Shown here piece after piece: positions 33,302-51,235 of a DNA stretch of 64,000 nucleotides (position 1 is the first letter of the stretch; every line of letters begins with the position of its first letter). Under the pieces are notes generated by a model, which was not told where the DNA came from, did no database searches, and saw only the letters and a list, made by a program, of their open reading frames with translations. Position numbers and translations under genes: made by a program. The DNA comes from a phage, in assembly GCA_015370545.1 (NCBI GenBank), contig GCA_015370545.1_3932.1, one strand, 5' to 3'.

Positions 33302-33754
33302 ATGTTAAGTTCATTTTACATAGCACTGACTGAGATTCTATATAAAGAATTTGGTACAGATACCATCTTTGACTCTAATGAGGCTATAAAAGCTCTCAGA
33401 AGTGGAAGTGACTGCCTAAGTAAAAGCCCTATAGCAAACATTCGGTATTACTTGACCACAATGCGTAAAATGGGGCTACTGATGGCTGTAAGTCAGGGAA
33501 CAAAAGACTGTGCTTCTCTATACCTAAACCAACTAAATAAAATGATGATAGAGAGCGACCCACAACTATCAAGACTACTTGATAGTGTTGACAAAACTAA
33601 TAGGAATACAAGAACATCAAAACCAAAAGGTGAGTTCCTCCCTGATGCAAAATACTTTATTGATGAACTAATGTTTGATACCATAGAAGATGCAGTTGAG
33701 TATTGCAAAAAGAATATTATTAAGTTGAAAAGAAAGAAAATTATTTGGGAATAA
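33302..33754 (+). CDS. hypothetical protein, tandem paralogue B
   Basis: 150 aa; paralogue of 32804..33268. Confidence 0.5.
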   Translation: MLSSFYIALTEILYKEFGTDTIFDSNEAIKALRSGSDCLSKSPIANIRYYLTTMRKMGLLMAVSQGTKDCASLYLNQLNKMMIESDPQLSRLLDSVDKTNRNTRTSKPKGEFLPDAKYFIDELMFDTIEDAVEYCKKNIIKLKRKKIIWE

Positions 33755-34662
33755 AACTACCATTATCGAGAGAGAAAACTATGAAAACATCTATCCGTGT
33801 TACAGTTCATTCACCAACTAAAGGAACTCATGAAGAAGAGTTTAACATCATCCAATTTCCTTCTGGTGAGATTGGTGGACACTTTTCGCCAGAGTTTGTT
33901 GATTTCACTGCTTATGCAGCATCATCCATCAACAATGTGATTATGATTGTAAAAGGTTATGATAAGGATACATTGTTTGCTGTGGCACTTGCTAAAGAAG
34001 CAATTGATGATTTAATTCCTCATGGTTATGCTTTAAAGACTGTCATCTTTTACTACTTACCAAATGCACGTTATGACCGTCACATGTTTAAAGGCGACGC
34101 AGCAGCTTTAAAGGTTTTTGCTAAACAGGTAAATGCAATGGGATTTGGTGCAGTCTGTGCAGTTGACCCTCACAGCTATGTACCAGATAACCTGTTTAAC
34201 TGCTTCCAGAGTATTCCTCAAAAGGAAATTGCAGTCCACTATGCAAATGACCCACTGATTGATTACTTAGTAGCCCCAGATGCAGGTGCTGCTAAGAAGA
34301 TTGCAGAGACTGCTAAAGAGGTGGATAAACCATATATCACAATGTCTAAAGTACGCAACCTTAAGACTGGTGAAATTACTGGTATGCGAATCCTTGATGA
34401 TGTTGATTTGACAGATAAAACCGTCATGATTCTGGATGATATCTGTGATGGTGGTCGAACCTTCATAGAAGCAGCTAAACATCTTCGTGAAGCAGGTGCA
34501 AAACGTGTGGAACTCTATGTAACACACGGTATCTTCTCTAAAGATGTTGAAAACCTTCTTGACAATGGCATTGACCACATCTACACTACAAACTCTTTAG
34601 GGGAAGCTAAAGACCGTGGCTTAACACATTATGGTCAAGTTACTGTAGCAAACCTTGATTGA
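33745..34662 (+). CDS. ribose-phosphate pyrophosphokinase-like (PRPP synthetase fold) protein
   Basis: 305 aa; type I PRTase-type PRPP-binding loop VMILDDICDGGRT; divergent N-terminus; immediately upstream of NAMPT-like gene. Confidence 0.75.
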   Translation: MGIKLPLSREKTMKTSIRVTVHSPTKGTHEEEFNIIQFPSGEIGGHFSPEFVDFTAYAASSINNVIMIVKGYDKDTLFAVALAKEAIDDLIPHGYALKTVIFYYLPNARYDRHMFKGDAAALKVFAKQVNAMGFGAVCAVDPHSYVPDNLFNCFQSIPQKEIAVHYANDPLIDYLVAPDAGAAKKIAETAKEVDKPYITMSKVRNLKTGEITGMRILDDVDLTDKTVMILDDICDGGRTFIEAAKHLREAGAKRVELYVTHGIFSKDVENLLDNGIDHIYTTNSLGEAKDRGLTHYGQVTVANLD

Positions 34663-34707: not shown

Positions 34708-36489
34708 ATGACTAAATCACTTTATGCAGTACCAGCAGGTTTAAACGCAGATGCTTACAAATCTGGTCATGTTTACCAGTACCCTAGTGCAACAGAGTAC
34801 TTGATGTTCAACCTGACACCACGTAGTGACAAATGGTTTAACAGCCCCTTAGCAATTGATGGTGTAGTAGCTTTTGGTATTCAACGTTTCGTTAAAGATT
34901 ACTTGATAGACCACTGGAACGCCACTTTCTTTGAACGTGATAAAAAAGAAGCCATTGATGAAATCTTAGAAGTCATGAATGGTGTTCTGGGTAAAGATGC
35001 TATCGGTCGAGAGCATTGGGAAGCACTTCACGACTTAGGTTATCTACCAGTTGAAGTATACGCTGTAGAAGAAGGTACAGTTGTTCCTATGCGTGTACCA
35101 ATGATTGTCTTCCAGAACACTGTTTCAGGTTTCCATTGGGTAGCGGGATATCTGGAAGATGCTTTCTCTGCTGAGATTTGGAAGGCTTGTACCATTGCAA
35201 CTATTGCATTGCATTATAAACGCATCTGTAAGAAGTGGGCTGACCTTACTTGCGACAATGACTTACATTTACCTTATCAGTGCCATGACTTTGCTATGCG
35301 TGGTATGTCCGGCTTTACTGATGACGCATTTAACGCTGTAGGCCACTTAACCAGCTTTAAAGGGACTGATAGCTTCCCTGCTGTATATACAGCTAAACGC
35401 ATCTACGGACAGTCTTACCAAGTCTCTGATATTGGTGGTTCTGTACCAGCCACTGAACACTCTGTAATGTGTGCAAACATTGCTTGGGAAGGTGGTAATG
35501 AGTTGGTTGAAGAAGAAAGACGCTTTAAAGGTGAGTTACAAACCTTCCGTCGTTTCTTAACAGAAACTTACCCAACGGGTATTGCAAGTGTTGTTTCAGA
35601 TACTTATAACTTCTGGAGAACTGTGTCAGAAATCTTACCAGCACTCCGTAAAGAAATTATGGAACGTGATGGCAAACTGGTAATTCGTCCTGACTCTGGA
35701 GACCCTGTACACATTGTCACAGGTTATAAAACAATCCACTTAGAGTGTGCTAAAAAGGCTTATTACGAGCACCTAAGTAAGCTGGAAGCCAGTGACGCAA
35801 TGCTGAATGCTGTTCTGAACATGAAGCTTGAAAACATCAGCTATGGTATTGCTGGATGGCTACTGTCAGAAGGCTACGAAATGGTTGTTGACAGAGAAGA
35901 CTTTGAAGTTGCTGATACAGTGCTGTTGAAGAACGCTTATATGGTTGGCTCTGCAAACGTTGTAACACGCCCTGTAGCAGAGATTGATGGAGCTATTAAG
36001 ACCTTGTATAACATCTTTGGAGGAACTATCAACTCTAAAGGTTTTAAGGTACTGGATGAGCACATTGGACTTATCTATGGTGACTCTATCACGTTGGAAC
36101 GTGCAAACGAAATCCTGAAGCGTCTGTATGAAATGGGGTTTGCAAGCTCTAACGTGGTGTTTGGTGTAGGCTCTTACACTTACCAGTACATGACTCGTGA
36201 CACCTTTGCATTTGCTGTCAAAGCAACTCTTGCAAGCATTGGTGGCAAAGAGATTATGCTTGCAAAAGACCCTAAAACAGATAGTGGTGTTAAGAAATCT
36301 GCCTTTGGTGGTGTAGCACCTATGTGGGATGGTGAGAATTTGAAAGCTGTAGATGGCTACGGATTCCAGAGCTTTGCAGATGCACTTGACCACCCAGCTT
36401 GTGCTTTACGTTTAGTCTTTAGCAACTCTGAGCAGTTCGGTTACACATCTCTTGGTGATATTCGAAATAATATTGACAAGCAGCTTTAA
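34708..36489 (+). CDS. nicotinamide phosphoribosyltransferase (NAMPT) family protein
   Basis: 593 aa; HLTSFKGTDS and GLIYGDSITLERANEIL...VVFGVGSYTYQ correspond to conserved NAMPT active-site regions. Confidence 0.85.
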   Translation: MTKSLYAVPAGLNADAYKSGHVYQYPSATEYLMFNLTPRSDKWFNSPLAIDGVVAFGIQRFVKDYLIDHWNATFFERDKKEAIDEILEVMNGVLGKDAIGREHWEALHDLGYLPVEVYAVEEGTVVPMRVPMIVFQNTVSGFHWVAGYLEDAFSAEIWKACTIATIALHYKRICKKWADLTCDNDLHLPYQCHDFAMRGMSGFTDDAFNAVGHLTSFKGTDSFPAVYTAKRIYGQSYQVSDIGGSVPATEHSVMCANIAWEGGNELVEEERRFKGELQTFRRFLTETYPTGIASVVSDTYNFWRTVSEILPALRKEIMERDGKLVIRPDSGDPVHIVTGYKTIHLECAKKAYYEHLSKLEASDAMLNAVLNMKLENISYGIAGWLLSEGYEMVVDREDFEVADTVLLKNAYMVGSANVVTRPVAEIDGAIKTLYNIFGGTINSKGFKVLDEHIGLIYGDSITLERANEILKRLYEMGFASSNVVFGVGSYTYQYMTRDTFAFAVKATLASIGGKEIMLAKDPKTDSGVKKSAFGGVAPMWDGENLKAVDGYGFQSFADALDHPACALRLVFSNSEQFGYTSLGDIRNNIDKQL

Positions 36490-40720: not shown

Positions 40721-41269
40721 ATGAAGAAATTGATTCTAGGTTTGTGCTTAATGTTTACAGCACACTTATCTTATGCAGTTGACTGCCCAGAGCTATCAAT
40801 TAGCCAAAAAGTGAACATGTTAAAAGCTTACCAGTATGGTGAGAATAACATGGGTAAAGGTTGGGGTATCACTCTAGCAGCTATAGCCTTACAAGAGTCA
40901 GAGTTAGGTCTGAAGGTAGAAAATAAAAAGACCCATGACTATGGTATCTTCCAGAATCACTTGAAGACTGTTGTAAAGCGTAACAAAATTAGTCCTAATG
41001 TTGCTAAAAAGAAACTCTTAAAAGATTTTGACTATGCCGCAAAAGAAACACATAAAGAGCTTGAGTTTTGGACGAAGGTACATGGTCAGCCAAAGTCAAA
41101 GAAGACTTTACAAAAAGTTTTAGCATCATATAATGCTGGGTATTCGTACAAAATCCCTAAAGCTAAGAAATACTCTCAAGATGTCTATAACAATATGAAA
41201 GTTATCGCTCAATGTGAATTTGCAACAAACATTTCTAAGGTAAATCATGAAAAAATTAAGAAAGTCTGA
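40721..41269 (+). CDS. secreted lytic-transglycosylase-like protein
   Basis: 182 aa; signal peptide MKKLILGLCLMFTAHLSYA; AIALQESELG and DYGIFQN resemble SLT-domain motifs. Confidence 0.5.
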   Translation: MKKLILGLCLMFTAHLSYAVDCPELSISQKVNMLKAYQYGENNMGKGWGITLAAIALQESELGLKVENKKTHDYGIFQNHLKTVVKRNKISPNVAKKKLLKDFDYAAKETHKELEFWTKVHGQPKSKKTLQKVLASYNAGYSYKIPKAKKYSQDVYNNMKVIAQCEFATNISKVNHEKIKKV

Positions 41270-41942
41270 TGAAGTCCTGTGCCACGCTTATGACTTGCAT
41301 CCTCATGAGTTAGGTCTTGATTCCTGTGTATGGACTCCAGAACAGTGCAGGGATTTTGAAGACACTGCAAGAGAAGTTGTATGTTCACTGGAAGAGTTCC
41401 ACACATCAGAACCAATTGTGAACGTTGTGGACAAAGAGACTGGACAAACTATAGGTGTAAGGCGTGATAGTTTAGTCATAGTCAATAAAGACCTTGTAGA
41501 AAAAGGTAACCTCATCTTAGCAGATATTGATGGTGTTCTTACAAATTTTAATCACGAAGATTGCTCAACGGAATTGACTGATGGGTCATTCTCACAGTAC
41601 ACTAATCTTCTTGACTCTGTAAGAGCAAAACCAACATATGTTTTTAGTATTATTGATGCAATTGCTAGTCATGCTGCCATTGGACTCTTGACAGCGAGAG
41701 GTGAATCTCAGAGAATACCTACTGAGATGTTTTTAAGGCATAACATAGAGCATGATTACATGCTTTTTATGCGTGGTTTTGGAACTAACTCTATAAGTGC
41801 AGAAAGTTTAAAAGTGAGGATGATTCAGTCTTGCATTCTTCCTTATTTTAATATAGTATGCTTTATAGAAGATACAGAGAAGAATGTTCAGAAGGTTAAC
41901 AGAATCCTTCCACACATTAAAACCATGTTAGTTAAACATTGA
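41247..41942 (+). CDS. hypothetical protein with HAD-like DxDG motif
   Basis: 231 aa; LADIDGVLTNF resembles HAD phosphatase motif I; weak. Confidence 0.35.
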   Translation: MKKLRKSDEVLCHAYDLHPHELGLDSCVWTPEQCRDFEDTAREVVCSLEEFHTSEPIVNVVDKETGQTIGVRRDSLVIVNKDLVEKGNLILADIDGVLTNFNHEDCSTELTDGSFSQYTNLLDSVRAKPTYVFSIIDAIASHAAIGLLTARGESQRIPTEMFLRHNIEHDYMLFMRGFGTNSISAESLKVRMIQSCILPYFNIVCFIEDTEKNVQKVNRILPHIKTMLVKH

Positions 41943-42418
41943 GAGAAAAACTTATGAACAATATCATTACGGTAGCACTGGACGATACGGCAAACAAATC
42001 TGAAGTAGTTCGTAAAATGATTCAAGGTAACTTTGAAGGTAAAATTTTCCGTGCTGTTAATGTAAAAGCTGATGGTAGTATTCGTGAATATCGTGCATTG
42101 TTGAATGTTAAAAAGCACGTAAAAGGTGCTGGTTCAACGACTGCACACAAAGAAAACCTGATGACTATCTATGATATGGGTAAGGCTTCAGAGTTAGGTG
42201 CTGAAGGTATCGTTAAAGAAGGTGCTCCGTATCGCTCTTTCAATCTGGAAACTACTCTTATGCTTTCCTTTACAAGTGGTTCTAAAACAATCACTTATCT
42301 CTTTACTGATGCTGCAACGGTATCTGCTATTAAGGATAGCACTGTCAAAGCTGGCGTAGTTGCTGCTGCAAAAGCTTCTTCGATGGCTGCAAATATCCTT
42401 GCTAAAGTCCTCGGTTAA
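41939..42418 (+). CDS. hypothetical protein
   Basis: 159-aa ORF. Confidence 0.45.
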   Translation: MREKLMNNIITVALDDTANKSEVVRKMIQGNFEGKIFRAVNVKADGSIREYRALLNVKKHVKGAGSTTAHKENLMTIYDMGKASELGAEGIVKEGAPYRSFNLETTLMLSFTSGSKTITYLFTDAATVSAIKDSTVKAGVVAAAKASSMAANILAKVLG

Positions 42419-42430
42419 GGTTAAGATACA

Positions 42431-42451
42431 GGCTCCTTCGGGAGCCTTTTT
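42431..42451 (+). terminator. rho-independent terminator
   Basis: GGCTCC-TTCG-GGAGCC followed by TTTTT. Confidence 0.65.
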
Positions 42452-42470
42452 CATTTCAGGAGATTGTTAA

Positions 42471-42818
42471 ATGACATTTAAAGAGTTCTGTCAAGCTACT
42501 TTCATAATTGTTTTCTTAGTTGGGGCAGGTGTCTGGGGAGGATACTCTTACAGAGACTACCAAGTTGCTGAAGCTGAGTTAAGCAATGAGAAACTAATAA
42601 GTGTTGCTAAAGATGCTTATCAGGAAGGTTTAGCCACACTCAGCACCAATTACAAAAATGATTTGAAAGATGTGCTTGCTAAGAATAAGCATACAAAAGA
42701 GGTACTAACATATGAAAAAACTAAGCCAGAGTTTTATAATGTTTGTGTTACTGATAATTATGTCAGGGTGTTCAACGAACAAAGTGAACAGTACATTCAA
42801 AAACTCCCAAGTAAGTGA
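42471..42818 (+). CDS. i-spanin-like protein
   Basis: 115 aa; N-terminal TM segment then charged periplasmic region; overlaps lipoprotein ORF in another frame. Confidence 0.4.
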   Translation: MTFKEFCQATFIIVFLVGAGVWGGYSYRDYQVAEAELSNEKLISVAKDAYQEGLATLSTNYKNDLKDVLAKNKHTKEVLTYEKTKPEFYNVCVTDNYVRVFNEQSEQYIQKLPSK

Positions 42819-42981
42819 GAGTGACAAGTACACTCAAGAAGAGTCAAGATTCACTGTCAAAGGTAATACTGGTAGTGATGTGGCAGCAGCCCTTGAGTTT
42901 TATCGTGATGGTTTTTACCAGTGCACAATCAAAGCTAATAACCTTATTGATATGATTTTATTAGGAAACAAACAGCAATGA
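42712..42981 (+). CDS. o-spanin-like lipoprotein
   Basis: 89 aa; signal peptide with lipobox IIMSGC; starts inside the 3' end of the upstream gene in a different frame. Confidence 0.45.
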   Translation: MKKLSQSFIMFVLLIIMSGCSTNKVNSTFKNSQVSESDKYTQEESRFTVKGNTGSDVAAALEFYRDGFYQCTIKANNLIDMILLGNKQQ

Positions 42982-43247
42982 CAGAGAATGAAGACACTTT
43001 CTATGTAGAAGGGTACTTACTGCTACCACGACCAAAAGAAACTTATATGCGGGTTGATTTCTCACCAACCATTATGGATAATGTGATGTGTCATATCTTT
43101 ATGCAAGGTGTCACAGCACAGCTTAAGCACGTTGGTAAAGAGTGCAAAATAAAGGTTGACACTCATCCAGAAATCAAAGAGAATCACTACACATGGTTCT
43201 TACCAGATTCTAAAGAAATCTTAGCAGTTCTTAAAACGAGGAAATGA
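42978..43247 (+). CDS. hypothetical protein
   Basis: 89-aa ORF. Confidence 0.4.
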   Translation: MTENEDTFYVEGYLLLPRPKETYMRVDFSPTIMDNVMCHIFMQGVTAQLKHVGKECKIKVDTHPEIKENHYTWFLPDSKEILAVLKTRK

Positions 43248-43558
43248 TTATGCAATTCCAGCCAACCAATCGTGGATTTTCTTATGCAGAATTTAAAGAT
43301 GCTAAAGGGGAAATTTGTACTTTACAAGAGAGTTCATCATATGAACCATGTATTTGGTTAGGTGCTAAAGAGGTCTCTGTTCAGTACCTAGATGGTGGCT
43401 GGAAAACACTTGATATCCCAGCATTAGTAGGCAAAGATTTTGTAGGTAACCAAAGAATGAAACTCAACCAAGAACAGGTGAAAGAGTTATTGCCATACCT
43501 TCAGTACTTTGCTGAAAATGGTGAATTACCAACAGAGGAACTTACAAATGCAGATTAA
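43244..43558 (+). CDS. hypothetical protein
   Basis: 104-aa ORF. Confidence 0.4.
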   Translation: MIMQFQPTNRGFSYAEFKDAKGEICTLQESSSYEPCIWLGAKEVSVQYLDGGWKTLDIPALVGKDFVGNQRMKLNQEQVKELLPYLQYFAENGELPTEELTNAD

Positions 43559-43874
43559 TGGAAGAGACTTTGTAGCCGTTTACTACGAGAAAGATAAAGA
43601 AGTTGGCGTAGCACAAGTATCTTATGGTAATGGTAAGTGGTTGTATGGGACAATCGCAGTAGTCGGAACAAGAAGTGATACAAAAACTTTTAAAGATTGT
43701 GTTGACCTCCTTGAAGAATCCATTCAGAATCATTGGTGTCTGATATGGATGACTGACAACGAAGTGATAGAACGCTTCAAAAAGATTGATATCAACATTG
43801 ATAGTATTGAGCATGTTGATTTATATGAGCTAACTGAGAAGGTAAACTATGAGAGTAATTCTAGCCAGAGATAA
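43548..43874 (+). CDS. hypothetical protein
   Basis: ORF 43509..43874 trimmed to internal ATG at 43548 (MQINGRDF) preceded by AGAGGA. Confidence 0.4.
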   Translation: MQINGRDFVAVYYEKDKEVGVAQVSYGNGKWLYGTIAVVGTRSDTKTFKDCVDLLEESIQNHWCLIWMTDNEVIERFKKIDINIDSIEHVDLYELTEKVNYESNSSQR

Positions 43875-44076
43875 AAAGACACGGAAACTCATCCGGTCAG
43901 CAGTATTCATTGGAAGAAATGAAGTCATCCCGTTTACAGCAAACGATGTGATAGCCTACAGGAAAAACTTAGTGTTTAGTGATTGCTTGCGTGGCTTCAT
44001 CTCCCAACCGTTGGAAGACTTTAAAAGCCGTTGTGGTAAAGGTATCATCATTCAAGAGGCAATTATCAATGGCTGA
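43849..44076 (+). CDS. hypothetical protein
   Basis: 75-aa ORF. Confidence 0.35.
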   Translation: MRVILARDKKTRKLIRSAVFIGRNEVIPFTANDVIAYRKNLVFSDCLRGFISQPLEDFKSRCGKGIIIQEAIING

Positions 44077-44269
44077 CTTCTGCAAAGACTGTTCTATCGA
44101 AATGTTCGGACGTGATACAGGTGACTTAAAAGGTCTTATCACTGAAGATGACTTTAAAGCTGGTTATGCAATGCCAGTAATCTGTGAAGGTTGTGGGTGC
44201 ATCTGGGTAGACCACGAAGGACAACGTGTAAAACCTTCAGAAGACAAAGAATCTTGGGAGAGATGTTAA
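44069..44269 (+). CDS. small zinc-ribbon protein
   Basis: ORF 43979..44269 trimmed to ATG at 44069; CKDCS...CEGCGC. Confidence 0.35.
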   Translation: MADFCKDCSIEMFGRDTGDLKGLITEDDFKAGYAMPVICEGCGCIWVDHEGQRVKPSEDKESWERC

Positions 44270-45055
44270 ATGGGTATTGTAAAAATAATTAATGGTGATA
44301 TCTTTGCCGCATTTGATAAAGGTAAGTTTGACATCATCGGTCACGGTTGCAACTGTATGAATTTAATGAGTGCAGGTATCGCTGACAAGATTTCTAAACT
44401 TTACCCAAAAGCATATGAGACCGATACAGAAGTTTATCTGTATGCAGGTGGTATAGGACACAAACCCTGTGAAAATTTACTAGGTAATTTCTCTGTAGCA
44501 CGTTTAAAACAAGGTCGTATAGCTAATCTTTACACTCAGCTTAAGACTGGTAAAGATGCCCGATACAGTGCTTTAGAGTCATCTTTGAAACAGCTTAACA
44601 GATACTGTGAAGTTAATCAGTTGAAGAAAGTTGGGTTACCTATGATTGGTGCAGGTATCGGTGGACTTGACCCTCAAGCCGTTACCGTTATCATTAATCA
44701 GGTGATGAAGAGTGTAGATGTGTATCTGTATGTCTACGAAGGAGAGATGTACCACAAGTTACGCTCAGGTTGGAATAACTACTGCGAACCAGAATACTTT
44801 GCAGGTGTAGTAACGTTCACAGACAATGCAGTTACCCTCTTCAGACGAAGAAAAGGTAAGATACATCAAAGTAACCCTCCGGTTGAAAAGATGTCTCTAA
44901 GTAACGCTCTAGTTACCCACCTGTCGAAGAGCAATCACAGAATTGCAGTAACATTTGGCAGTGATGCAGACACATATATCTATGCAAGGACTGATGAAGA
45001 TATCGAGGAGATTTTCTCATCACAAGAAGTTACCTTCTTAGACGCAAAGAACTAA
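44270..45055 (+). CDS. macro-domain-like (ADP-ribose binding/processing) protein
   Basis: 261 aa; N-terminal GDIF...DIIGHGCNCMNLMSAGIA and glycine-rich VGLPMIGAGIGGLDP fit the macro-domain pattern; extra C-terminal region. Confidence 0.5.
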   Translation: MGIVKIINGDIFAAFDKGKFDIIGHGCNCMNLMSAGIADKISKLYPKAYETDTEVYLYAGGIGHKPCENLLGNFSVARLKQGRIANLYTQLKTGKDARYSALESSLKQLNRYCEVNQLKKVGLPMIGAGIGGLDPQAVTVIINQVMKSVDVYLYVYEGEMYHKLRSGWNNYCEPEYFAGVVTFTDNAVTLFRRRKGKIHQSNPPVEKMSLSNALVTHLSKSNHRIAVTFGSDADTYIYARTDEDIEEIFSSQEVTFLDAKN

Positions 45056-45085
45056 TAAACTCTGTAGAATATTCACAATAGATTA

Positions 45086-45130
45086 AGCCTTCCTTATCTG
45101 GTAAATTTTTCAGGTAAGGAAGGCTTTTTT
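45086..45130 (+). terminator. rho-independent terminator
   Basis: 10-bp stem GCCTTCCTTA/TAAGGAAGGC followed by TTTTTT. Confidence 0.6.
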
Positions 45131-45320
45131 ATTTCAAGATTGTGCAGGTAGAGTTCTGTAGAGAAATCTGTAGAGAAAATTTTGAACTCCAAAGAGAAAA
45201 TTCATTTTCAAACTGTGCAGGTAATCTCCAAAGAGCTTTTTCATTTTCAAAACGTGCAGACCCCGCTCAGGTCGGGCAAGAAAAATCATTTTAGAATTGT
45301 GCAGGTAGGTGGATGCAGGT
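45120..45320. repeat. four direct repeats of TTTTCAAAnTGTGCAGGTA-type unit in ORF-free DNA
   Basis: copies near 45125, 45205, 45245 and 45290; flanking CTCCAAAGAG also repeats. Confidence 0.5.
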
Positions 45321-45484: not shown

Positions 45485-45575
45485 TGACTCTTTGAGTATG
45501 GTTATCTAATATTTGCATCAACGGGGAGGGAATGACCTTCCCCACTAAGTAAAGTCCTAAACTGGAGATTCTAAA
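45485..45575 (+). promoter_or_regulatory. promoter + conserved 5' hairpin leader + RBS
   Basis: TTGACT-17 nt-TAATAT, then CAACGGGGAGGGAATGACCTTCCCC hairpin, then AAACTGGAGATTCTAAA ATG. Confidence 0.55.
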
Positions 45576-45956
45576 ATGGCATACCGTGCACCTAAATTCA
45601 TCAACAAAGACAACTTCCGCAACGCACTGGAGAAGTCACTTGATGAAAAATTTAACGGCAAATTGATTGTTGTTCACGCATTCAATTTTAAGTATGATAT
45701 TAACGGGAATAAAATCAACCATTACACGGCAACCATGTTAGATGGTACGCTATCAAGTGAAAAAGCCGTACTGAATGCACTTGCAGGACGTGGTAAAAAC
45801 CTGATAAGCTGCAATAAGAGACGTTATCAAGGTGGCGCATATGGTTATGATGATGCTGTTTACCATCTTGAAAATATGGGCTATTCAGTGGAGAAAGCTG
45901 GAGCGTCTCAAATAATTGGTAGTGATGGTTATGTGACAATCTTCAAAATTAAATAA
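45576..45956 (+). CDS. small cassette protein 1
   Basis: 126-aa ORF behind conserved leader. Confidence 0.55.
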   Translation: MAYRAPKFINKDNFRNALEKSLDEKFNGKLIVVHAFNFKYDINGNKINHYTATMLDGTLSSEKAVLNALAGRGKNLISCNKRRYQGGAYGYDDAVYHLENMGYSVEKAGASQIIGSDGYVTIFKIK

Positions 45957-46042
45957 AAGTACTTTACAAGGGGCTTATAGTTCGATAAAGTAAGCCCCAG
46001 ATAAAGAGCTTTATCACTCAATCCTAAATTGGAGATTCAAAA
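45957..46042 (+). promoter_or_regulatory. conserved intergenic cassette (hairpin + palindrome + RBS)
   Basis: AAGTACTTTACA-GGGGCTTA...TAAGCCCC-AGATAAAGAGCTTTATC-...TGGAGATTCAAAA; one of four near-identical units. Confidence 0.55.
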
Positions 46043-46300
46043 ATGGCTATTATCAAAAACGTTGTAGTTCCTGCAAAAACTCGTGATGACGCTCGCATCA
46101 TGGCGAAAAAGTTAGGCGGGAAAGTGGTTGACAACGGAAAACAATCTGCTGTAAGATGGAGCGTGAAGGCTGATAAGCAACTAACCTTAAAACGCAGTTC
46201 AAACAATCTTTTTAAAGGTGTAAAATCACTCGGTAAAGTGAACGTGTTTACCAAAAAAGGCTATAAAATGCACTTATCATTAACTGGCAATTTAATCTGA
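46043..46300 (+). CDS. small cassette protein 2 (basic)
   Basis: 85-aa ORF behind conserved leader. Confidence 0.55.
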   Translation: MAIIKNVVVPAKTRDDARIMAKKLGGKVVDNGKQSAVRWSVKADKQLTLKRSSNNLFKGVKSLGKVNVFTKKGYKMHLSLTGNLI

Positions 46301-46390
46301 TAAAGTACTTTACAGGGGGCTTAAAAGCTGATATCTTAAGCCCCAGATAAAGAGCTTTACCACTCAATCCTTAAACTAGGAGATTCAAAA
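46301..46390 (+). promoter_or_regulatory. conserved intergenic cassette
   Basis: same unit as 45957..46042. Confidence 0.55.
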
Positions 46391-46903
46391 ATGAAAACTG
46401 TAGAAGCTACCTTTGAAGTTGTAAAAGAAAAATTTTCCATCATTTACGAAGCTGTTAATTGCTTTGAAGCAAGCCATAACCTTGATAATTGGGAGTTTAC
46501 AGATGACCATCAAGGCGGCGTGACTATTAAAAACCCCAACTGTCAGCGTAATGATTTTAAATATGCAATCCCTTTACATTACAGCCTTAAACAGCTTTCA
46601 AGTGACTATGCAAAACAAGGCCGGGAAAATCCATCAAAAGAGGCTTACATAAGCTTACAGAAAGAACTAGAAAGAGATTTAGAGGCTTCAGAATACAACC
46701 TTGCCGCGAAAGTTGTCGATGCAAATGGTCAAACAATTTTAGATAGTTTTTATATTGGTTACGCTTTCGATTGGTGCTATAGTGACGGCGATGATTTAGA
46801 GGATAGACTAAAAGAAGAGGTGAGCAATTCAGACGCAGAATCTGAAGTATTAGAACGCTTGGAAGCATTAAAAGATTCAGTGATGAATATCTTTAAGAAC
46901 TAA
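46391..46903 (+). CDS. small cassette protein 3 (acidic C-terminus)
   Basis: 170 aa; D/E-rich C-terminal region. Confidence 0.55.
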   Translation: MKTVEATFEVVKEKFSIIYEAVNCFEASHNLDNWEFTDDHQGGVTIKNPNCQRNDFKYAIPLHYSLKQLSSDYAKQGRENPSKEAYISLQKELERDLEASEYNLAAKVVDANGQTILDSFYIGYAFDWCYSDGDDLEDRLKEEVSNSDAESEVLERLEALKDSVMNIFKN

Positions 46904-46990
46904 ATAGATTTCTTTACACGGGGCTATCAAGCTGATAAGATAGCCCCAGATAAAGAGATTTATCAACTATCCTAAACTGGAGATTCAAAA
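46904..46990 (+). promoter_or_regulatory. conserved intergenic cassette
   Basis: same unit (GGGGCTATCAAGCTGATAAGATAGCCCC hairpin variant). Confidence 0.55.
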
Positions 46991-47287
46991 ATGAAATTAT
47001 CAAATAAAGTCCGTGAAAATCTAAGCAAGTTACTCAACAAAATTGATTTTATCGAGACATCAAGGAATAGTCATGATGTTATGGAATGGTTACACGGAAA
47101 AATCAAAGGCCGTCGTGTAGTGATTTGCTTATGGAATAGTTGCAGGGAATATAAAAAACCTGTATTACAAGTCAATATCTATGATGATACTTTTAAAAGC
47201 CCTGTAAAGTCTAAAAGTGATTTATTAGAATCCTATGAGATAACTGTAAATGGCAAAGTATCAAGTAAAGAGGAAACACCATGTTAA
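46991..47287 (+). CDS. small cassette protein 4
   Basis: 98-aa ORF. Confidence 0.5.
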   Translation: MKLSNKVRENLSKLLNKIDFIETSRNSHDVMEWLHGKIKGRRVVICLWNSCREYKKPVLQVNIYDDTFKSPVKSKSDLLESYEITVNGKVSSKEETPC

Positions 47288-47613
47288 TGACTGGTATCAC
47301 TGCAATCATTGCCATTTTCGCGCTATATAAGGCATATAAAGCCTATAATCTAGCAAATAAGGCAATCACACAGCAGGTTAGCAATAGCCTTGTAGAAAGC
47401 TTTCTAGGGCGTCTCAGTGATGAGCAAATAAAGCGGTTAGAAATGAGCTTCAGATTCAAAGCGAAAACCTATCAGATAAGTGACATCTTCAAGGATGATT
47501 TCCAGTTAGTCGATGATTATAATTCTCTGATAAATGCTTTAAATATCAGTGACTTAAAAGACTACTACGCTGTAATTGTTCAAGAGTTGAGCAAACGAAA
47601 ACAAAACTGTTGA
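47281..47613 (+). CDS. small cassette protein 5 (membrane anchor)
   Basis: 110 aa; N-terminal hydrophobic segment ITAIIAIFALY; overlaps previous stop. Confidence 0.5.
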   Translation: MLMTGITAIIAIFALYKAYKAYNLANKAITQQVSNSLVESFLGRLSDEQIKRLEMSFRFKAKTYQISDIFKDDFQLVDDYNSLINALNISDLKDYYAVIVQELSKRKQNC

Positions 47614-47702
47614 CACTGATTTTTAGATAGATTAAATTACACATCAACGGGGAGGGAACAACCTTCCCACTAAATAAAGTCCTTAAACTAGGAGATTCTA
47701 AA
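47610..47702 (+). promoter_or_regulatory. promoter + conserved 5' hairpin leader + RBS
   Basis: TTGACA-17 nt-TAAATT, CAACGGGGAGGGAACAACCTTCCC hairpin, TAGGAGATTCTAAA ATG. Confidence 0.6.
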
Positions 47703-47975
47703 ATGTATACTACTAACAATGGCCTCACTTTGAACGTCACACTACGTCACTATGTAGATGGTGTCATGCACTTTGAAGATTTACAAGCTGAACAACATAT
47801 CTTAGATTGGCAAGTCGCAGGACTCCAAAAAACTGCTACGGGATACGGTAAAAAGATTCCAACTAGTTGGAAAGTTCACTATGAAGGACGTTTGCGCAGA
47901 ATTTATCAAGATGTGCAAAGCAATAGCGCATCGAGTTACATTATAGTAAAAGGTGAAAAACTGCATTTAGTATAA
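47703..47975 (+). CDS. small cassette protein 6
   Basis: 90-aa ORF. Confidence 0.55.
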   Translation: MYTTNNGLTLNVTLRHYVDGVMHFEDLQAEQHILDWQVAGLQKTATGYGKKIPTSWKVHYEGRLRRIYQDVQSNSASSYIIVKGEKLHLV

Positions 47976-48060
47976 AGTACTTTACATGGGGTTTAAAAGT
48001 TGGTATCTTAAGCCCCAGATAAAGAGCTTTACCCCTAAATCCTAAATTGGAGATTCAAAA
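47976..48060 (+). promoter_or_regulatory. conserved intergenic cassette
   Basis: same unit as 45957..46042. Confidence 0.55.
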
Positions 48061-48465
48061 ATGGCTATTAATAATCGTGAGTTATCAATCTTAAAAGCAC
48101 GTTTAACCGTTAATCGAATCAATGTTATCACGTCATCAGCACCAGACGAGACATTACACAACATTATCGGGAAGATTCAAGGTGTTATCTTAGACGTTGA
48201 GAATGTAAAAAACTCATTAGCAGACGTTGCAGCAGGTGTTACACTAGACGGCGCACAATATGAAATGATTGACATGTTAGGCAAATCAAAGGTTATGAAT
48301 AAAGAGTTAGACTTAAAAATGTTTCGATTTGCCGTGAAAGTATGGCTATCTGTCGAGTATGATGCTAATTTTGCAATTGCTGATTTCTTTGCCACTTGGT
48401 TGCAACGTAACTTAACAAATCATGATTTTCGTGATATCTGTGATGCAATTTACGCAGAACTTTAA
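48061..48465 (+). CDS. small cassette protein 7
   Basis: 134-aa ORF. Confidence 0.55.
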   Translation: MAINNRELSILKARLTVNRINVITSSAPDETLHNIIGKIQGVILDVENVKNSLADVAAGVTLDGAQYEMIDMLGKSKVMNKELDLKMFRFAVKVWLSVEYDANFAIADFFATWLQRNLTNHDFRDICDAIYAEL

Positions 48466-48473
48466 AAATTTTA

Positions 48474-48565
48474 TTGACACTGATTTTTAGATAGACTAAA
48501 TTACACATCAACGGGGAGGGAACAACCTTCCCACTAAATAAAGTCCTTAAACTAGGAGATTCAAA
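48474..48565 (+). promoter_or_regulatory. promoter + conserved 5' hairpin leader + RBS
   Basis: TTGACA-17 nt-TAAATT; near-identical to 47610 copy. Confidence 0.6.
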
Positions 48566-49108
48566 ATGAAATGCTTTCACGGTACTACTCAAGAAAACTT
48601 TATCAACCTGATTAATAACGGTGATAAACCATCAGGTGTATGGAATTGTTCGGATATGGACGGCAATTTTTACGTGTACCCAGAAAATAAACTCTATGGT
48701 GATGATGAGGAAGAGATAGCATCGGAAGGTATCCAGCAAGCTCTAGGAAATGCCACTATCACGGCAGCTTTTCAGATGAAAACTCAAAATATTGTTATCT
48801 TAGAACTTGACATTCCAGAGGATGAGCTAAATGATGATTATTCTTGTGATAACATGTCAAATATAGCAAGCTTTACAGAGTACTTTGATGTAAATTGGAT
48901 TAAAAAGGTCTATACAACAGAGTTCAACGCTATGTATTCACCTTTTTGTCTCCCTTCACTGGATAACCCAAATTTGAATTATCTTGATGAAACATTGGAG
49001 CTACTTGCTAAAAGTATCCAACAATCCGACAGTATTCAGGTTTTTTGTGACATCATGGATACACTGACAGAAAACATTGTAGAGAGTGATTTAAAGGTCT
49101 TTTTCTAA
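48566..49108 (+). CDS. small cassette protein 8 (highly acidic)
   Basis: 180 aa; very D/E-rich with almost no Arg. Confidence 0.55.
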   Translation: MKCFHGTTQENFINLINNGDKPSGVWNCSDMDGNFYVYPENKLYGDDEEEIASEGIQQALGNATITAAFQMKTQNIVILELDIPEDELNDDYSCDNMSNIASFTEYFDVNWIKKVYTTEFNAMYSPFCLPSLDNPNLNYLDETLELLAKSIQQSDSIQVFCDIMDTLTENIVESDLKVFF

Positions 49109-49142
49109 AAACCTATACATTCACCTTATAAACACTGATTAA

Positions 49143-49160
49143 CCCCTTACAGGGGCTTTT
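49143..49160 (+). terminator. rho-independent terminator
   Basis: CCCCT-TACA-GGGGC followed by TTTT. Confidence 0.5.
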
Positions 49161-49174
49161 AGAGGGCTTAAATC

Positions 49175-49408
49175 ATGCTTACAACCATTTATCTCATCCT
49201 TTCTATCTGTAACGGTCATTCATGTGACTTTAAAGGGCTTGAAGAGTTTACAGGAAGTAAAGAAAATGCTATTCAGGTTTGCCAGATAGCAAGACAAGAC
49301 TATCCCGCCAGTGACGACATTCAATGCTACTTTAAGACAGAAGATGAAGACGGCATCTATTTTGACAGCGTTGACGGTCAATATGAAATTATCATTGAAA
49401 AAGACTAG
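49175..49408 (+). CDS. small cassette protein 9
   Basis: 77 aa; hydrophobic N-terminus, acidic body. Confidence 0.5.
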   Translation: MLTTIYLILSICNGHSCDFKGLEEFTGSKENAIQVCQIARQDYPASDDIQCYFKTEDEDGIYFDSVDGQYEIIIEKD

Positions 49409-49499
49409 ACAAGCCTGATAAAAGTCTGTAAATTGTCAATCAACGGGGAGGGAATGACCTTCCCCACTAAATAAAGTCCTTAAACTAGGAGATTCAAAA
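49406..49499 (+). promoter_or_regulatory. promoter + conserved 5' hairpin leader + RBS
   Basis: TAGACA-17 nt-TAAATT then CAACGGGGAGGGAATGACCTTCCCC hairpin. Confidence 0.55.
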
Positions 49500-49841
49500 A
49501 TGGCTTATGTAACCGTAATTACCGATAAAGCTGGCTCATCTTGGTCAACTCAGGTTAGTGATAAGATGTCGCCTATGCAGTGCCTAAAATACTTTGAGCA
49601 GTGGAACAAAGGCGAGGATGTAAGCCCCTTTCAAGTGATGCAAATCATCCATACAGATAACGAAGGGAATAAAACGACCTTGAACAGTGAATACTACGCA
49701 AGCCGTTTTGAAACGAGAAGTAAAACAATGAAGCTTTTACGTGAATCCGGCTATTCTCATATTGCCGCGCTAATCTGGGATGACCTGCTAAAAAGCCAGC
49801 GTATCAGCTATGTAAAACCTGAAAAAATATTCATCAGTTAA
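49500..49841 (+). CDS. small cassette protein 10
   Basis: 113-aa ORF. Confidence 0.55.
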   Translation: MAYVTVITDKAGSSWSTQVSDKMSPMQCLKYFEQWNKGEDVSPFQVMQIIHTDNEGNKTTLNSEYYASRFETRSKTMKLLRESGYSHIAALIWDDLLKSQRISYVKPEKIFIS

Positions 49842-49872
49842 TCAATAACTTACAAAAAACTTTTAAAAAAGT

Positions 49873-50062
49873 GTTGACAATACCCCTTGACATTGGTAAC
49901 TTTGTTCGAGGGGGTTTATCTAAAAGGGATTCACTTAATAGATTCTTTATAGATAAACTTAAAAAATTGCTTGCAAAGGCAAATCAAAACAAGTAAATTA
50001 CTAATCAACGGGAAGGGATTAACCTTCCCACTAAGTAAAGTCCTTAAACTAGGAGATTCAAA
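49873..50062 (+). promoter_or_regulatory. tandem promoters + conserved 5' hairpin leader
   Basis: TTGACAATACCCCTTGACA at 49873, then TTGCAA-17 nt-TAAATT at 49971, then CAACGGGAAGGGATTAACCTTCCC hairpin. Confidence 0.5.
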
Positions 50063-50593
50063 ATGAACAAGTTTCAAGCTATCAACTATATTCGCTCATC
50101 CAACGTTATGACTAAGCCCGTTAAAGATACCTTCGAATTTCGTTGCAACGGTGTACACTTTGCAACTATCACTAAATCAGAAAACGGGGCTTATTATATA
50201 CATCGTCGTAATGCCTCTACTGTTGTAGTCTCTCACTTTATGCAAGCTGTAGCAGAACTGTTACCGCTATTCTTAGGTATTTACTTAGATGAGTGCAAAA
50301 ACGTTCGCAACCACGTTAAAGACCTTTTAAATGGTTATAAAATGGCTTATGAACGTTCTATCAAGAATCTTAACAAGTTCTATAAAGCCCCTGAAAATAC
50401 TGTTTCAATGGCTTACAGTGTAAGCGGTGAGTTGGTTAGCCTCTTTGAAGTGGAAGAAATCGCGTTGCATGACTTACGCCCTAGCGGTTACTCTAAGACA
50501 CTAGAGGAAGGTTTAACGTTCAATATCAAGAACTTAGAAAAAACTTTAAAAGATATTGAAAAAGATATTGACGAGACAATCAAAAATCTGTAA
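50063..50593 (+). CDS. small cassette protein 11
   Basis: 176-aa ORF. Confidence 0.55.
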   Translation: MNKFQAINYIRSSNVMTKPVKDTFEFRCNGVHFATITKSENGAYYIHRRNASTVVVSHFMQAVAELLPLFLGIYLDECKNVRNHVKDLLNGYKMAYERSIKNLNKFYKAPENTVSMAYSVSGELVSLFEVEEIALHDLRPSGYSKTLEEGLTFNIKNLEKTLKDIEKDIDETIKNL

Positions 50594-50655
50594 ATTGTCA
50601 ATCAACGGGGGATAACCTCCCCCACTAAACAAAATCCTAAACTGGAGTTATCAAG
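50566..50655 (+). promoter_or_regulatory. promoter-like + conserved 5' hairpin leader
   Basis: TAAATT box at 50591 then CAACGGGGGATAACCTCCCCC hairpin; -35 uncertain. Confidence 0.45.
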
Positions 50656-50919
50656 ATGGAAAACGTAGAATTAACCACACTTTTACAAATTGCAACCGAC
50701 AAAGAAGATGTAGCATTATTCCACCGTATCGAAAGCGATTTGTTCAATGGTGAAATCATTAAAGAATCTTACGAAGTTGTCGGATTCAAAGATGGTAAAG
50801 CATTTGGCTTTTTTGACCTCGACAAAAGCAAAGCGGTTACAATGTACGATGTTCTATCTTGTGAAATTCTGACAAAATACAACGAAAAAAGGCTTGCAAC
50901 CTACGCCAATATGCAGTAA
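50656..50919 (+). CDS. small cassette protein 12
   Basis: 87-aa ORF. Confidence 0.55.
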   Translation: MENVELTTLLQIATDKEDVALFHRIESDLFNGEIIKESYEVVGFKDGKAFGFFDLDKSKAVTMYDVLSCEILTKYNEKRLATYANMQ

Positions 50920-50986
50920 ATTACTAATCAACGGGGAGGGAATGACCTTCCCACTAAACAAAGTCCTAAACTGGAGAATCTAAATT
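50894..50986 (+). promoter_or_regulatory. promoter + conserved 5' hairpin leader + RBS
   Basis: TTGCAA-18 nt-TAAATT then CAACGGGGAGGGAATGACCTTCCC hairpin. Confidence 0.5.
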
Positions 50987-51235
50987 ATGTCAACTATCCG
51001 CGTAACTGTTAATGCTTATGGCTGCCACAAACTTGATGCAAAATTCGATATCGGTGGAACAGATAACACCTTTGACCTTATCAAAATGCTGATTCAGCAG
51101 GTGATACCAGATTATAACCCTACTGATGACTTCTGGAAAGATGCCGTAAAAGAAGCCATAAACGAGGAATCTCACTACCATTATTGGGGTGACTTGATTG
51201 TCTCTCTATACTACAGCAAACAAGGCTACAACTAA
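50987..51235 (+). CDS. small cassette protein 13
   Basis: 82-aa ORF. Confidence 0.55.
   Translation: MSTIRVTVNAYGCHKLDAKFDIGGTDNTFDLIKMLIQQVIPDYNPTDDFWKDAVKEAINEESHYHYWGDLIVSLYYSKQGYN

Follow-up and report, generated by a model that had tools for sequence, protein, structure and literature searches.

Several macrodomains remove ADP-ribose from thymidine in single-stranded DNA (ssDNA), among them DarG, TARG1 and SCO6735 (PMC9411070), and in DarG a second domain binds the toxin DarT2 (PMC11825919). DarTG systems occur widely among E. coli, Salmonella and mycobacteria, and phage macrodomains that defeat DarTG2 were shown only in 2025-2026, for T4 and for jumbo phages that form a nucleus. Transposon screening of T4 on a DarTG2-expressing host gave tk.4 as the single significant match, and a clean deletion of tk.4 sensitises T4 to DarTG2; the gene was therefore named adfM (10.1101/2025.11.20.689424). 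PhiKZ gp104, a macrodomain independently named AdfM, clears DNA in vitro of the ADP-ribose that DarT2 adds and gives chimalliviruses protection (PMC13309987, Cell Reports). Our interest here is in a plus-strand gene at 44270-45055 of a 64,000-nucleotide stretch of phage DNA (GenBank assembly GCA_015370545.1, contig GCA_015370545.1_3932.1; the whole stretch is called the window). The source phage is a Felixounavirus (a FelixO1-like myovirus of the Ounavirinae). The gene encodes a protein in which a macrodomain of the T4 Tk.4 family, with DarG, TARG1 and SCO6735 as its nearest relatives, is joined to a beta-rich C-terminal domain. We consider it reasonably probable that this protein is a Tk.4/AdfM-type, orphan-antitoxin-like enzyme that strips DarT2-added ADP-ribose from the thymidines of phage ssDNA by means of a Gln-type, lysine-independent active site.

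Identification of the macrodomain and its family

The gene and the parts of its product are given below, with the evidence for each part. AF2 denotes AlphaFold2 and pLDDT the predicted local distance difference test score of its models.

44270-45055, plus strand: complete open reading frame (ORF), ATG to TAA, with the stop codon TAA at 45053-45055; 261 amino acids, 29 kDa (ORF list and sequence).
44270-44737, plus strand: macro domain of the ALC1/TARG1/DarG-like class, residues 1-156 (Pfam, AF2, Foldseek, hhalign, BLASTP).
44351-44353, plus strand: Asn28 codon, in the HGCNC motif (alignments to DarG and PhiKZ AdfM).
44537-44539, plus strand: Gln90 codon, in the NLYTQ motif (alignments to DarG and TARG1).
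44645-44674, plus strand: Gly-rich phosphate-binding loop IGAGIGGLDP, residues 126-135 (TARG1 alignment).
44738-44785, plus strand: linker, with a short helix at residues 158-166 and low-confidence residues 167-172 (pLDDT <50; AF2 model of the full protein).
44786-45052, plus strand: C-terminal beta-rich domain, residues ~173-261 (Ounavirinae macro proteins only).

An initial annotation of this DNA had divided the protein into an N-terminal macro pattern of about 150 residues and an extension of about 110, quoting GDIF, DIIGHGCNCMNLMSAGIA and IGAGIGGLDP as its motifs. The boundaries proved right (residues 1-156 followed by about 105 more), and the three motifs are found at residues 9-12, 21-38 and 126-135. 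The two computational checks it had suggested, a hidden Markov model search against Macro (PF01661) and structure prediction, both agree with the assignment. The Pfam PF01661 match is significant (29.5 bits, E 7.7e-7; gathering score 22) and covers residues 25-141 and profile positions 2-117 of 118. The AF2 model, built with 21 homologues, has a mean pLDDT of 85 (85-96 through most of residues 11-130) and displays the three-layer alpha/beta/alpha macro fold, with the loops MSAGIA and GAGIGG conserved. Comparison of the model with the PDB by Foldseek gave 244 matches at E<=1e-3, and the best 50 of the 244 are all macrodomains or designed enzymes built on the macro fold. The best of them is the T. 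aquaticus DarG macrodomain with ADP-ribose (E 5e-10, TM score 0.80, target-normalised), followed by TARG1 and Poa1p; the target-normalised TM scores of the top matches range from 0.80 to 0.85. Alignment of the family with the same DarG macrodomain in hhalign returned a probability of 98.3%. At the level of sequence, the family profile matched PDB entries for TARG1 (3e-16), Poa1p (3e-16), M. tuberculosis DarG (2e-15), SCO6735 (6e-15) and T. aquaticus DarG (7e-13), and TARG1 was the best PDB match of the single protein (E 4e-5). On these sequence and model comparisons the protein is a macrodomain of the ALC1/TARG1/DarG-like class, and ADP-ribose binding is predicted for it.

Among phage proteins, the window protein is a member of PHROG 335 (E 8e-111), as is T4 Tk.4 (E 7e-66), and it contains all the signatures of that family (HGCNC, MGAGIA, N-L-Y-T-Q and P-x-IGAGIG). 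BLASTP aligned residues 3-157 with the complete Tk.4 protein at 34% identity (E 2e-23). The two proteins share HGCNC, MGxG(I/V)A, NLYTQ and P-x-IGAGIG, and both stand alone, without an adjacent toxin. They differ in architecture, Tk.4 being a macro domain only (155 residues) and the window protein having in addition a linker of ~16 and a C-terminal domain of ~90 residues. Their surroundings differ as well, since Tk.4 lies in the tk/vs region of T4 and the window gene at the end of a spanin/small-gene unit, and the anti-DarTG2 phenotype was shown for T4 only. A tblastn search detected macro-domain relatives in 2771 phage records, mainly large myoviruses, and more than 190 Felixounavirus records encode proteins with 93-98% identity. 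These Felixounavirus homologues are annotated as 'putative macro domain protein', 'phosphatase' or 'O-acetyl-ADP-ribose deacetylase'.

The DarG relationship also emerged from defence-system models. Against the 5027 models of PADLOC, the window protein (E 1e-11), Tk.4 and three other family members matched DarG only, through the macro part, and the best NCBIfam match is the DarG antitoxin model NF048014. Both DarG profiles align to the macro part alone, over positions 4-152 of 338 (NCBIfam) and 19-146 of 329 (PADLOC). DarG (PDB 5M3E, 5M31, 5M3I) resembles the window protein as its best structural match, in having the equivalent Asn22, and in the order of an N-terminal macro domain and a C-terminal extension. 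It differs by Lys80 in place of Gln90, by its darT neighbour and by a tail with no detectable relation to that of the window protein; no darT gene neighbours the window gene.

Two further sets of relatives were encountered. A distant macro-family relative of metagenomic origin (P0016, 339 residues) is fused to a cREC_REC domain (PF20274) with predicted cyclic-phosphate/ADPr>p processing, indicating that the macro family gained different C-terminal modules more than once. Gln-type stand-alone macro proteins (HGVNC...NLASQ...PLIGAGIGG) occur on bacterial plasmids, for example at 276495-276947 of Paenarthrobacter pYJN5-1, where the macro gene adjoins a DEAD/DEAH helicase gene (L090). Aligning well with DarG, the plasmid proteins form a bridge between it and the phage family; a plasmid search for annotated DarG returned stand-alone macro proteins only.

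Active site residues

N28 aligns with N22 of DarG in BLASTP and hhalign alignments and with N23 of PhiKZ AdfM in a MAFFT alignment. The position of the catalytic lysine (K80 in DarG, K84 in TARG1, K78 in the PhiKZ protein) is occupied by Q90, and the alignments to all three proteins agree. A profile alignment to TARG1 places G131 at the position of D125. When the Gln-type Paenarthrobacter plasmid homologue was aligned directly to both DarG structures, the same Q-to-K correspondence was obtained.

Conservation was evaluated in 80 family members gathered from IMG/VR by the HGCNC and GAGIG motif patterns. N86, Y88 and Q90, all outside the collection patterns, are invariant in 80 of the 80. N28 is invariant to the same extent but lies inside a collection pattern. 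P124, G127 and G129 are likewise invariant, the Gly-rich loop itself being a collection pattern.

A Gln at the K80/K84 position together with the lack of an Asp at the D125 position (Q90 and G131) is the arrangement of SCO6735 (PDB 5E3B), which differs from the window protein in being a cellular single-domain protein. Gln85 of SCO6735 occupies the DarG K80/TARG1 K84 position, and either Q85A or Q85E abolishes activity (PMC9411070). The enzyme is an efficient hydrolase of thymidine-linked ADP-ribose on DNA and shields Streptomyces from DarT, and a water-mediated, substrate-assisted mechanism has been proposed for it by the authors of that study (PMC9411070). The equivalence of Gln85 and Q90 is transitive, drawn through the TARG1 and DarG alignments and the positional statement in the same paper. 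Because SCO6735 works with Gln at this position, loss of the DarG/TARG1 lysine is not evidence against activity. T4 Tk.4, for which the DarTG2 phenotype is known, likewise reads NLYTQ here.

The remaining relatives depart from this pattern. TARG1/OARD1 is of the same ALC1-like macro class, whereas its K84/D125 dyad corresponds to Q90/G131 in the window protein. Poa1p has the HxCNC motif but carries Cys at the N86 position and Ser at the Q90 position. PhiKZ AdfM is similar in being a phage orphan macrodomain directed against DarTG2, but it resembles DarG far more closely (E 9e-25 to 5M3I) and reaches the phage nucleus by import; it represents a separate lineage under the same name.

Proposed function and alternatives

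The initial annotation had offered two functions, the processing of ADP-ribose derivatives and the reversal of ADP-ribosylation imposed by host defence or toxin systems. The latter is the better supported, through the T4 Tk.4 phenotype and the kinship with DarG, TARG1 and SCO6735; for the window phage we infer the anti-DarT2 role, the DNA substrate and the chemistry. The curated annotation of the Felixounavirus Bas63, in which many genes are hypothetical, contains no ADP-ribosyltransferase (ART), NADAR protein or RNA ligase, which makes a host-derived modification a likelier substrate than a phage-internal cycle or an RNA-repair by-product. During infection of a DarTG2 host, DarT2 would use NAD+ to attach ADP-ribose to ssDNA thymidines, blocking phage replication. 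The phage macrodomain would bind the ADP-ribose moiety through its MxAGIA and GAGIGG loops and hydrolyse the ribose-thymine bond, by which normal DNA would be restored. Catalysis is envisaged as lysine-independent, Gln-assisted and water-mediated, as in SCO6735; N28 and Q90 would hold the distal ribose in position.

Several results weigh against this assignment. With respect to the catalytic residues of DarG, the Asn is kept (N28) and the Lys is replaced by Gln90, and in the TARG1 dyad Q90 and G131 stand in both positions. The score against the DarG equivalog NF048014 is 42.7 bits, far under its cut-off of 250. PhiKZ AdfM shares only 23% identity with the window protein (E 0.002) and is Lys-type (K78). 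The evidence on T4 AdfM is genetic only, DNA de-ADP-ribosylation being assumed by its authors (10.1101/2025.11.20.689424), and 34% identity does not fix the substrate specificity of a macrodomain. The family profile scores Poa1p, an Appr-1''-p phosphatase with the same H-x-C-N-C motif, as high as TARG1 and DarG. A literature search found no experiment on a Felixounavirus macro gene. Finally, the macro gene shares its unit with spanin genes, so that it may not be expressed early.

The Poa1p similarity leads to a small-molecule hydrolase as an alternative, that is, an ADP-ribose-1''-phosphate phosphatase, an O-acetyl-ADP-ribose deacetylase, or a destroyer of ADP-ribose-based immune signals or toxic metabolites, for which Thoeris gcADPR or His-ADPR and ADPr-1''P from RES-type toxins are candidates. 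We regard such an activity as rather unlikely. The profile match to Poa1p equals that to TARG1 (E 3e-16), Poa1p and the family have HxCNC and GxGIA motifs in common, the GenBank and PHROG labels ('phosphatase', 'ymdB') follow the same idea, and a survey holds low-molecular-weight ADPr derivatives to be the targets of most phage Macro domains (PMC9503650). However, the Cys and Ser of Poa1p stand against the invariant N86 and Q90 of the family, the PADLOC Thoeris macro-domain models were unmatched while DarG alone was matched, and the sole functional datum for the family, that on T4 Tk.4, points to DarTG2. A 'polynucleotide kinase' gene (PHROG 3970) 2.3 kb upstream and the cREC fusion in P0016 would also fit such an activity, but the kinase label lacks Pfam support and no RNA ligase or Tpt1/KptA-type producer of Appr>p is annotated in the phage.

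Removal of ADP-ribose from protein or RNA, for instance after modification by host toxin ARTs (CmdT-type acting on mRNA, ParT, Tre1-like), is distinctly improbable in our estimation. It draws on the observations that TARG1 is the best sequence-level PDB match, that Glu/Asp-linked ADP-ribose on proteins is a further substrate of TARG1 and SCO6735 (PMC9411070) and that macrodomains are versatile (PMC9503650). On the other side, the Lys84/Asp125 dyad that serves TARG1 on protein substrates is absent (Q90, G131), no phage ART that would need a reversing partner is annotated, and the one phenotype of the family is against a DNA-modifying toxin. That the protein is an inert binder of ADP-ribose, sequestering a signal or bringing the tail to ADP-ribosylated targets, would agree with the missing catalytic Lys and Asp of TARG1 and with the existence of macrodomains that are readers only (PMC9503650). 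We consider it very improbable, as the Gln is essential in SCO6735 (PMC9411070), the invariance of Q90 with N28, N86 and Y88 in 80 relatives fits an active site better than a mere binding pocket, and the ratio of nonsynonymous to synonymous substitution rates (dN/dS) of the macro domain is 0.065, a value of strong purifying selection.

If the anti-DarT2 assignment is true, macrodomains of this activity would be standard in therapeutic and typing phages of the FelixO1 group that infect Enterobacteriaceae (>250 sequenced genomes), and knowing of them would aid host-range prediction for strains that carry DarTG2. In addition, the family constitutes a natural set of lysine-free, Gln-type candidate DNA ADP-ribosyl hydrolases for probing the water-mediated mechanism of SCO6735. 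With a macro domain protein or 'phosphatase' label already in GenBank and a T4 relative recently characterised, the gene is a sound, if largely expected, anti-defence candidate; potential novelty could be confined to the orphan C-terminal domain and the allelic replacement described below.

The C-terminal domain

The tail (residues ~173-261) is beta-rich, with six strands and one helix, and its pLDDT is 69-90 in the full model and 76 on average when modelled alone. The extension is present in all Ounavirinae homologues examined and falls within the PHROG 335 profile. Proteins with both domains are known from Felixounavirus, from Mooglevirus (Mordin, 64% identity), from SUSP-like phages and from Kolesnikvirus, where BLAST aligns only the macro part of the 260-residue Panisse protein. 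More distant relatives are stand-alone macro proteins of ~150-185 residues or possess unrelated short tails.

Searches with the tail returned its own family and little else. A Pfam scan of 9 family members assigned no family to it, PHROGs gave only its own family and PADLOC nothing. A profile search of 1.84 billion representatives retrieved, besides family members, only two artefacts from repeat-rich eukaryotic proteins, one a retrotransposon polyprotein and the other a WSC-repeat protein. Foldseek against BFVD matched the SUSP2 homologue only, with poor superposition; given that result and the tail pLDDT of 76, the AF2 fold of the tail is not secure. The DarG profiles gave no alignment to the tail, and no relationship between it and the DarT-binding domain of DarG was detected.

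In 21 Felixounavirus alleles the dN/dS of the tail is 0.18, against the 0.065 of the macro domain, and the tail is a constrained coding region under purifying selection. Between lineages it changes much faster than the macro domain, its identity being 23-52% where the most divergent allele still has 52% in the macro part, and its isoelectric point (pI) varies from 4.6 to 8.9. A role as a general nucleic-acid-binding module was considered and is weakened by this range of pI and by an RRRKGK patch that is not conserved in the 41% allele described below.

The tail may be an accessory module, with toxin binding and targeting as candidate roles. A more specific and rather doubtful proposal is that it is a toxin-binding module and that the whole protein is a convergent, two-part mimic of DarG. 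In such a mimic, the macro domain would erase the DNA mark while the fast-evolving tail would bind and block DarT2 or another host ART, and swapped divergent alleles would be matched to different toxin variants.

Allelic replacement at the macro locus

A Felixounavirus contig from Logan SRR18206799 (L004) is ~96% identical to the window in nucleotide sequence across rIIB and the small genes. The proteins encoded beside its macro gene are 97-100% identical to those of the window (100% for a 66-residue Cys-rich protein), but the macro protein is 41% identical. Nucleotide similarity between the two is lost at 44413-45240 and then resumes. Two IMG/VR contigs (L037, L038; 84 and 94 kb) carry the same macro allele. 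Cassette-like replacement of the sort found here is typical of counter-defence genes but is only circumstantial evidence for such a role. Together, the tail and the allelic replacement provide a handle on whether phage orphan antitoxins evolve toxin-binding modules. The Logan contig also lacks a gene corresponding to window 43244-43558.

Genomic context

The 2.5 kb around the macro gene are 93-95% identical in nucleotide sequence to relatives that include vB_EcoM-Ro111lw, VpaE1 and JohannRWettstein/Bas63. Its immediate flanks contain the following features.

44069-44269, plus strand: gene for a 66-residue Cys-rich protein (CxxC...CxxCxC; PHROG 2210), whose TAA stop abuts the macro ATG.
44256-44262, plus strand: Shine-Dalgarno-like GGGAGAG, 7 nt 5' of the ATG (from sequence).
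45085-45126, plus strand: strong intrinsic-terminator-like hairpin with a 17-bp stem and a T run, 30 nt past the macro stop codon, at the end of the transcription unit.

Another terminator-like site lies at 42430-42447. After it begins a tightly packed unit (42471-45055) that comprises i-spanin and o-spanin genes, several small ORFs and the Cys-rich gene, and of which the macro gene is the last. Eight neighbouring ORFs (40721-44269, the spanin pair excluded) had no Pfam match to an ART; the neighbours are small phage genes, spanins and the Cys-rich protein. The Cys-rich gene was considered as a dedicated partner of the macro gene and rejected, for it is present in 836 phage records that include T5-like and rV5-like phages; it is probably a co-transcribed neighbour. 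Its product is zinc-ribbon-like, is 100% identical in many Felixounaviruses, and is also found in some Pseudomonas and Stenotrophomonas phages. The spanin pair (42471-42981) consists of a 115-residue protein that has a transmembrane segment at its N terminus and of an overlapping 89-residue lipoprotein-like ORF, and is distant from the endolysin gene, whose position was taken from the annotated relative Bas63.

The initial annotation had connected the macro protein with an NAD+ module in the same phage. The module is present, Pfam confirming both NAMPT (34708-36489) and the Prs ribose-phosphate pyrophosphokinase (33745-34662), whereas the evidence for a functional tie to the macro protein amounts to co-occurrence and a common concern with NAD+/ADP-ribose chemistry. 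The two genes lie 7.8 kb upstream in separate units, with rIIA, rIIB, other genes and at least one terminator-like site in between. The gene at 41247-41942, 2.3 kb upstream of the macro gene, encodes a 231-residue protein called 'polynucleotide kinase' through PHROG 3970, with weak matches to other polynucleotide kinase PHROGs; it had no Pfam match at E<=0.1, and the annotation looks weakly founded. A link to RNA repair through this gene was therefore set aside, the label being without Pfam support and no RNA ligase or Tpt1 being annotated.

As the initial annotation had stated, the macro gene adjoins an island of small genes, being the last gene before small genes with repeated leaders. In the island (45528-50993), each small gene is preceded by a repeated leader of ~60-95 nt, of which there are at least two types. 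One contains TTGACA...TAAATT and the hairpin GGGGAGGGAA..ACCTTCCC, the other TTTACA and the hairpin GGGGCTTA...TAAGCCCC, and both end in the conserved ribosome-binding region TCCTAAAyTrGAGATTCAAAAATG. The leader looks like a promoter/hairpin/Shine-Dalgarno cassette duplicated along the island. Directly after the terminator of the macro gene, 45128-45307 holds three tandem imperfect repeats of ~40 nt (core TTCATTTTCAAAcTGTGCAGGTA), which are possibly a regulatory or binding-site array; a small ORF on the minus strand, annotated in relatives (156 nt in Ro111lw), overlaps them.

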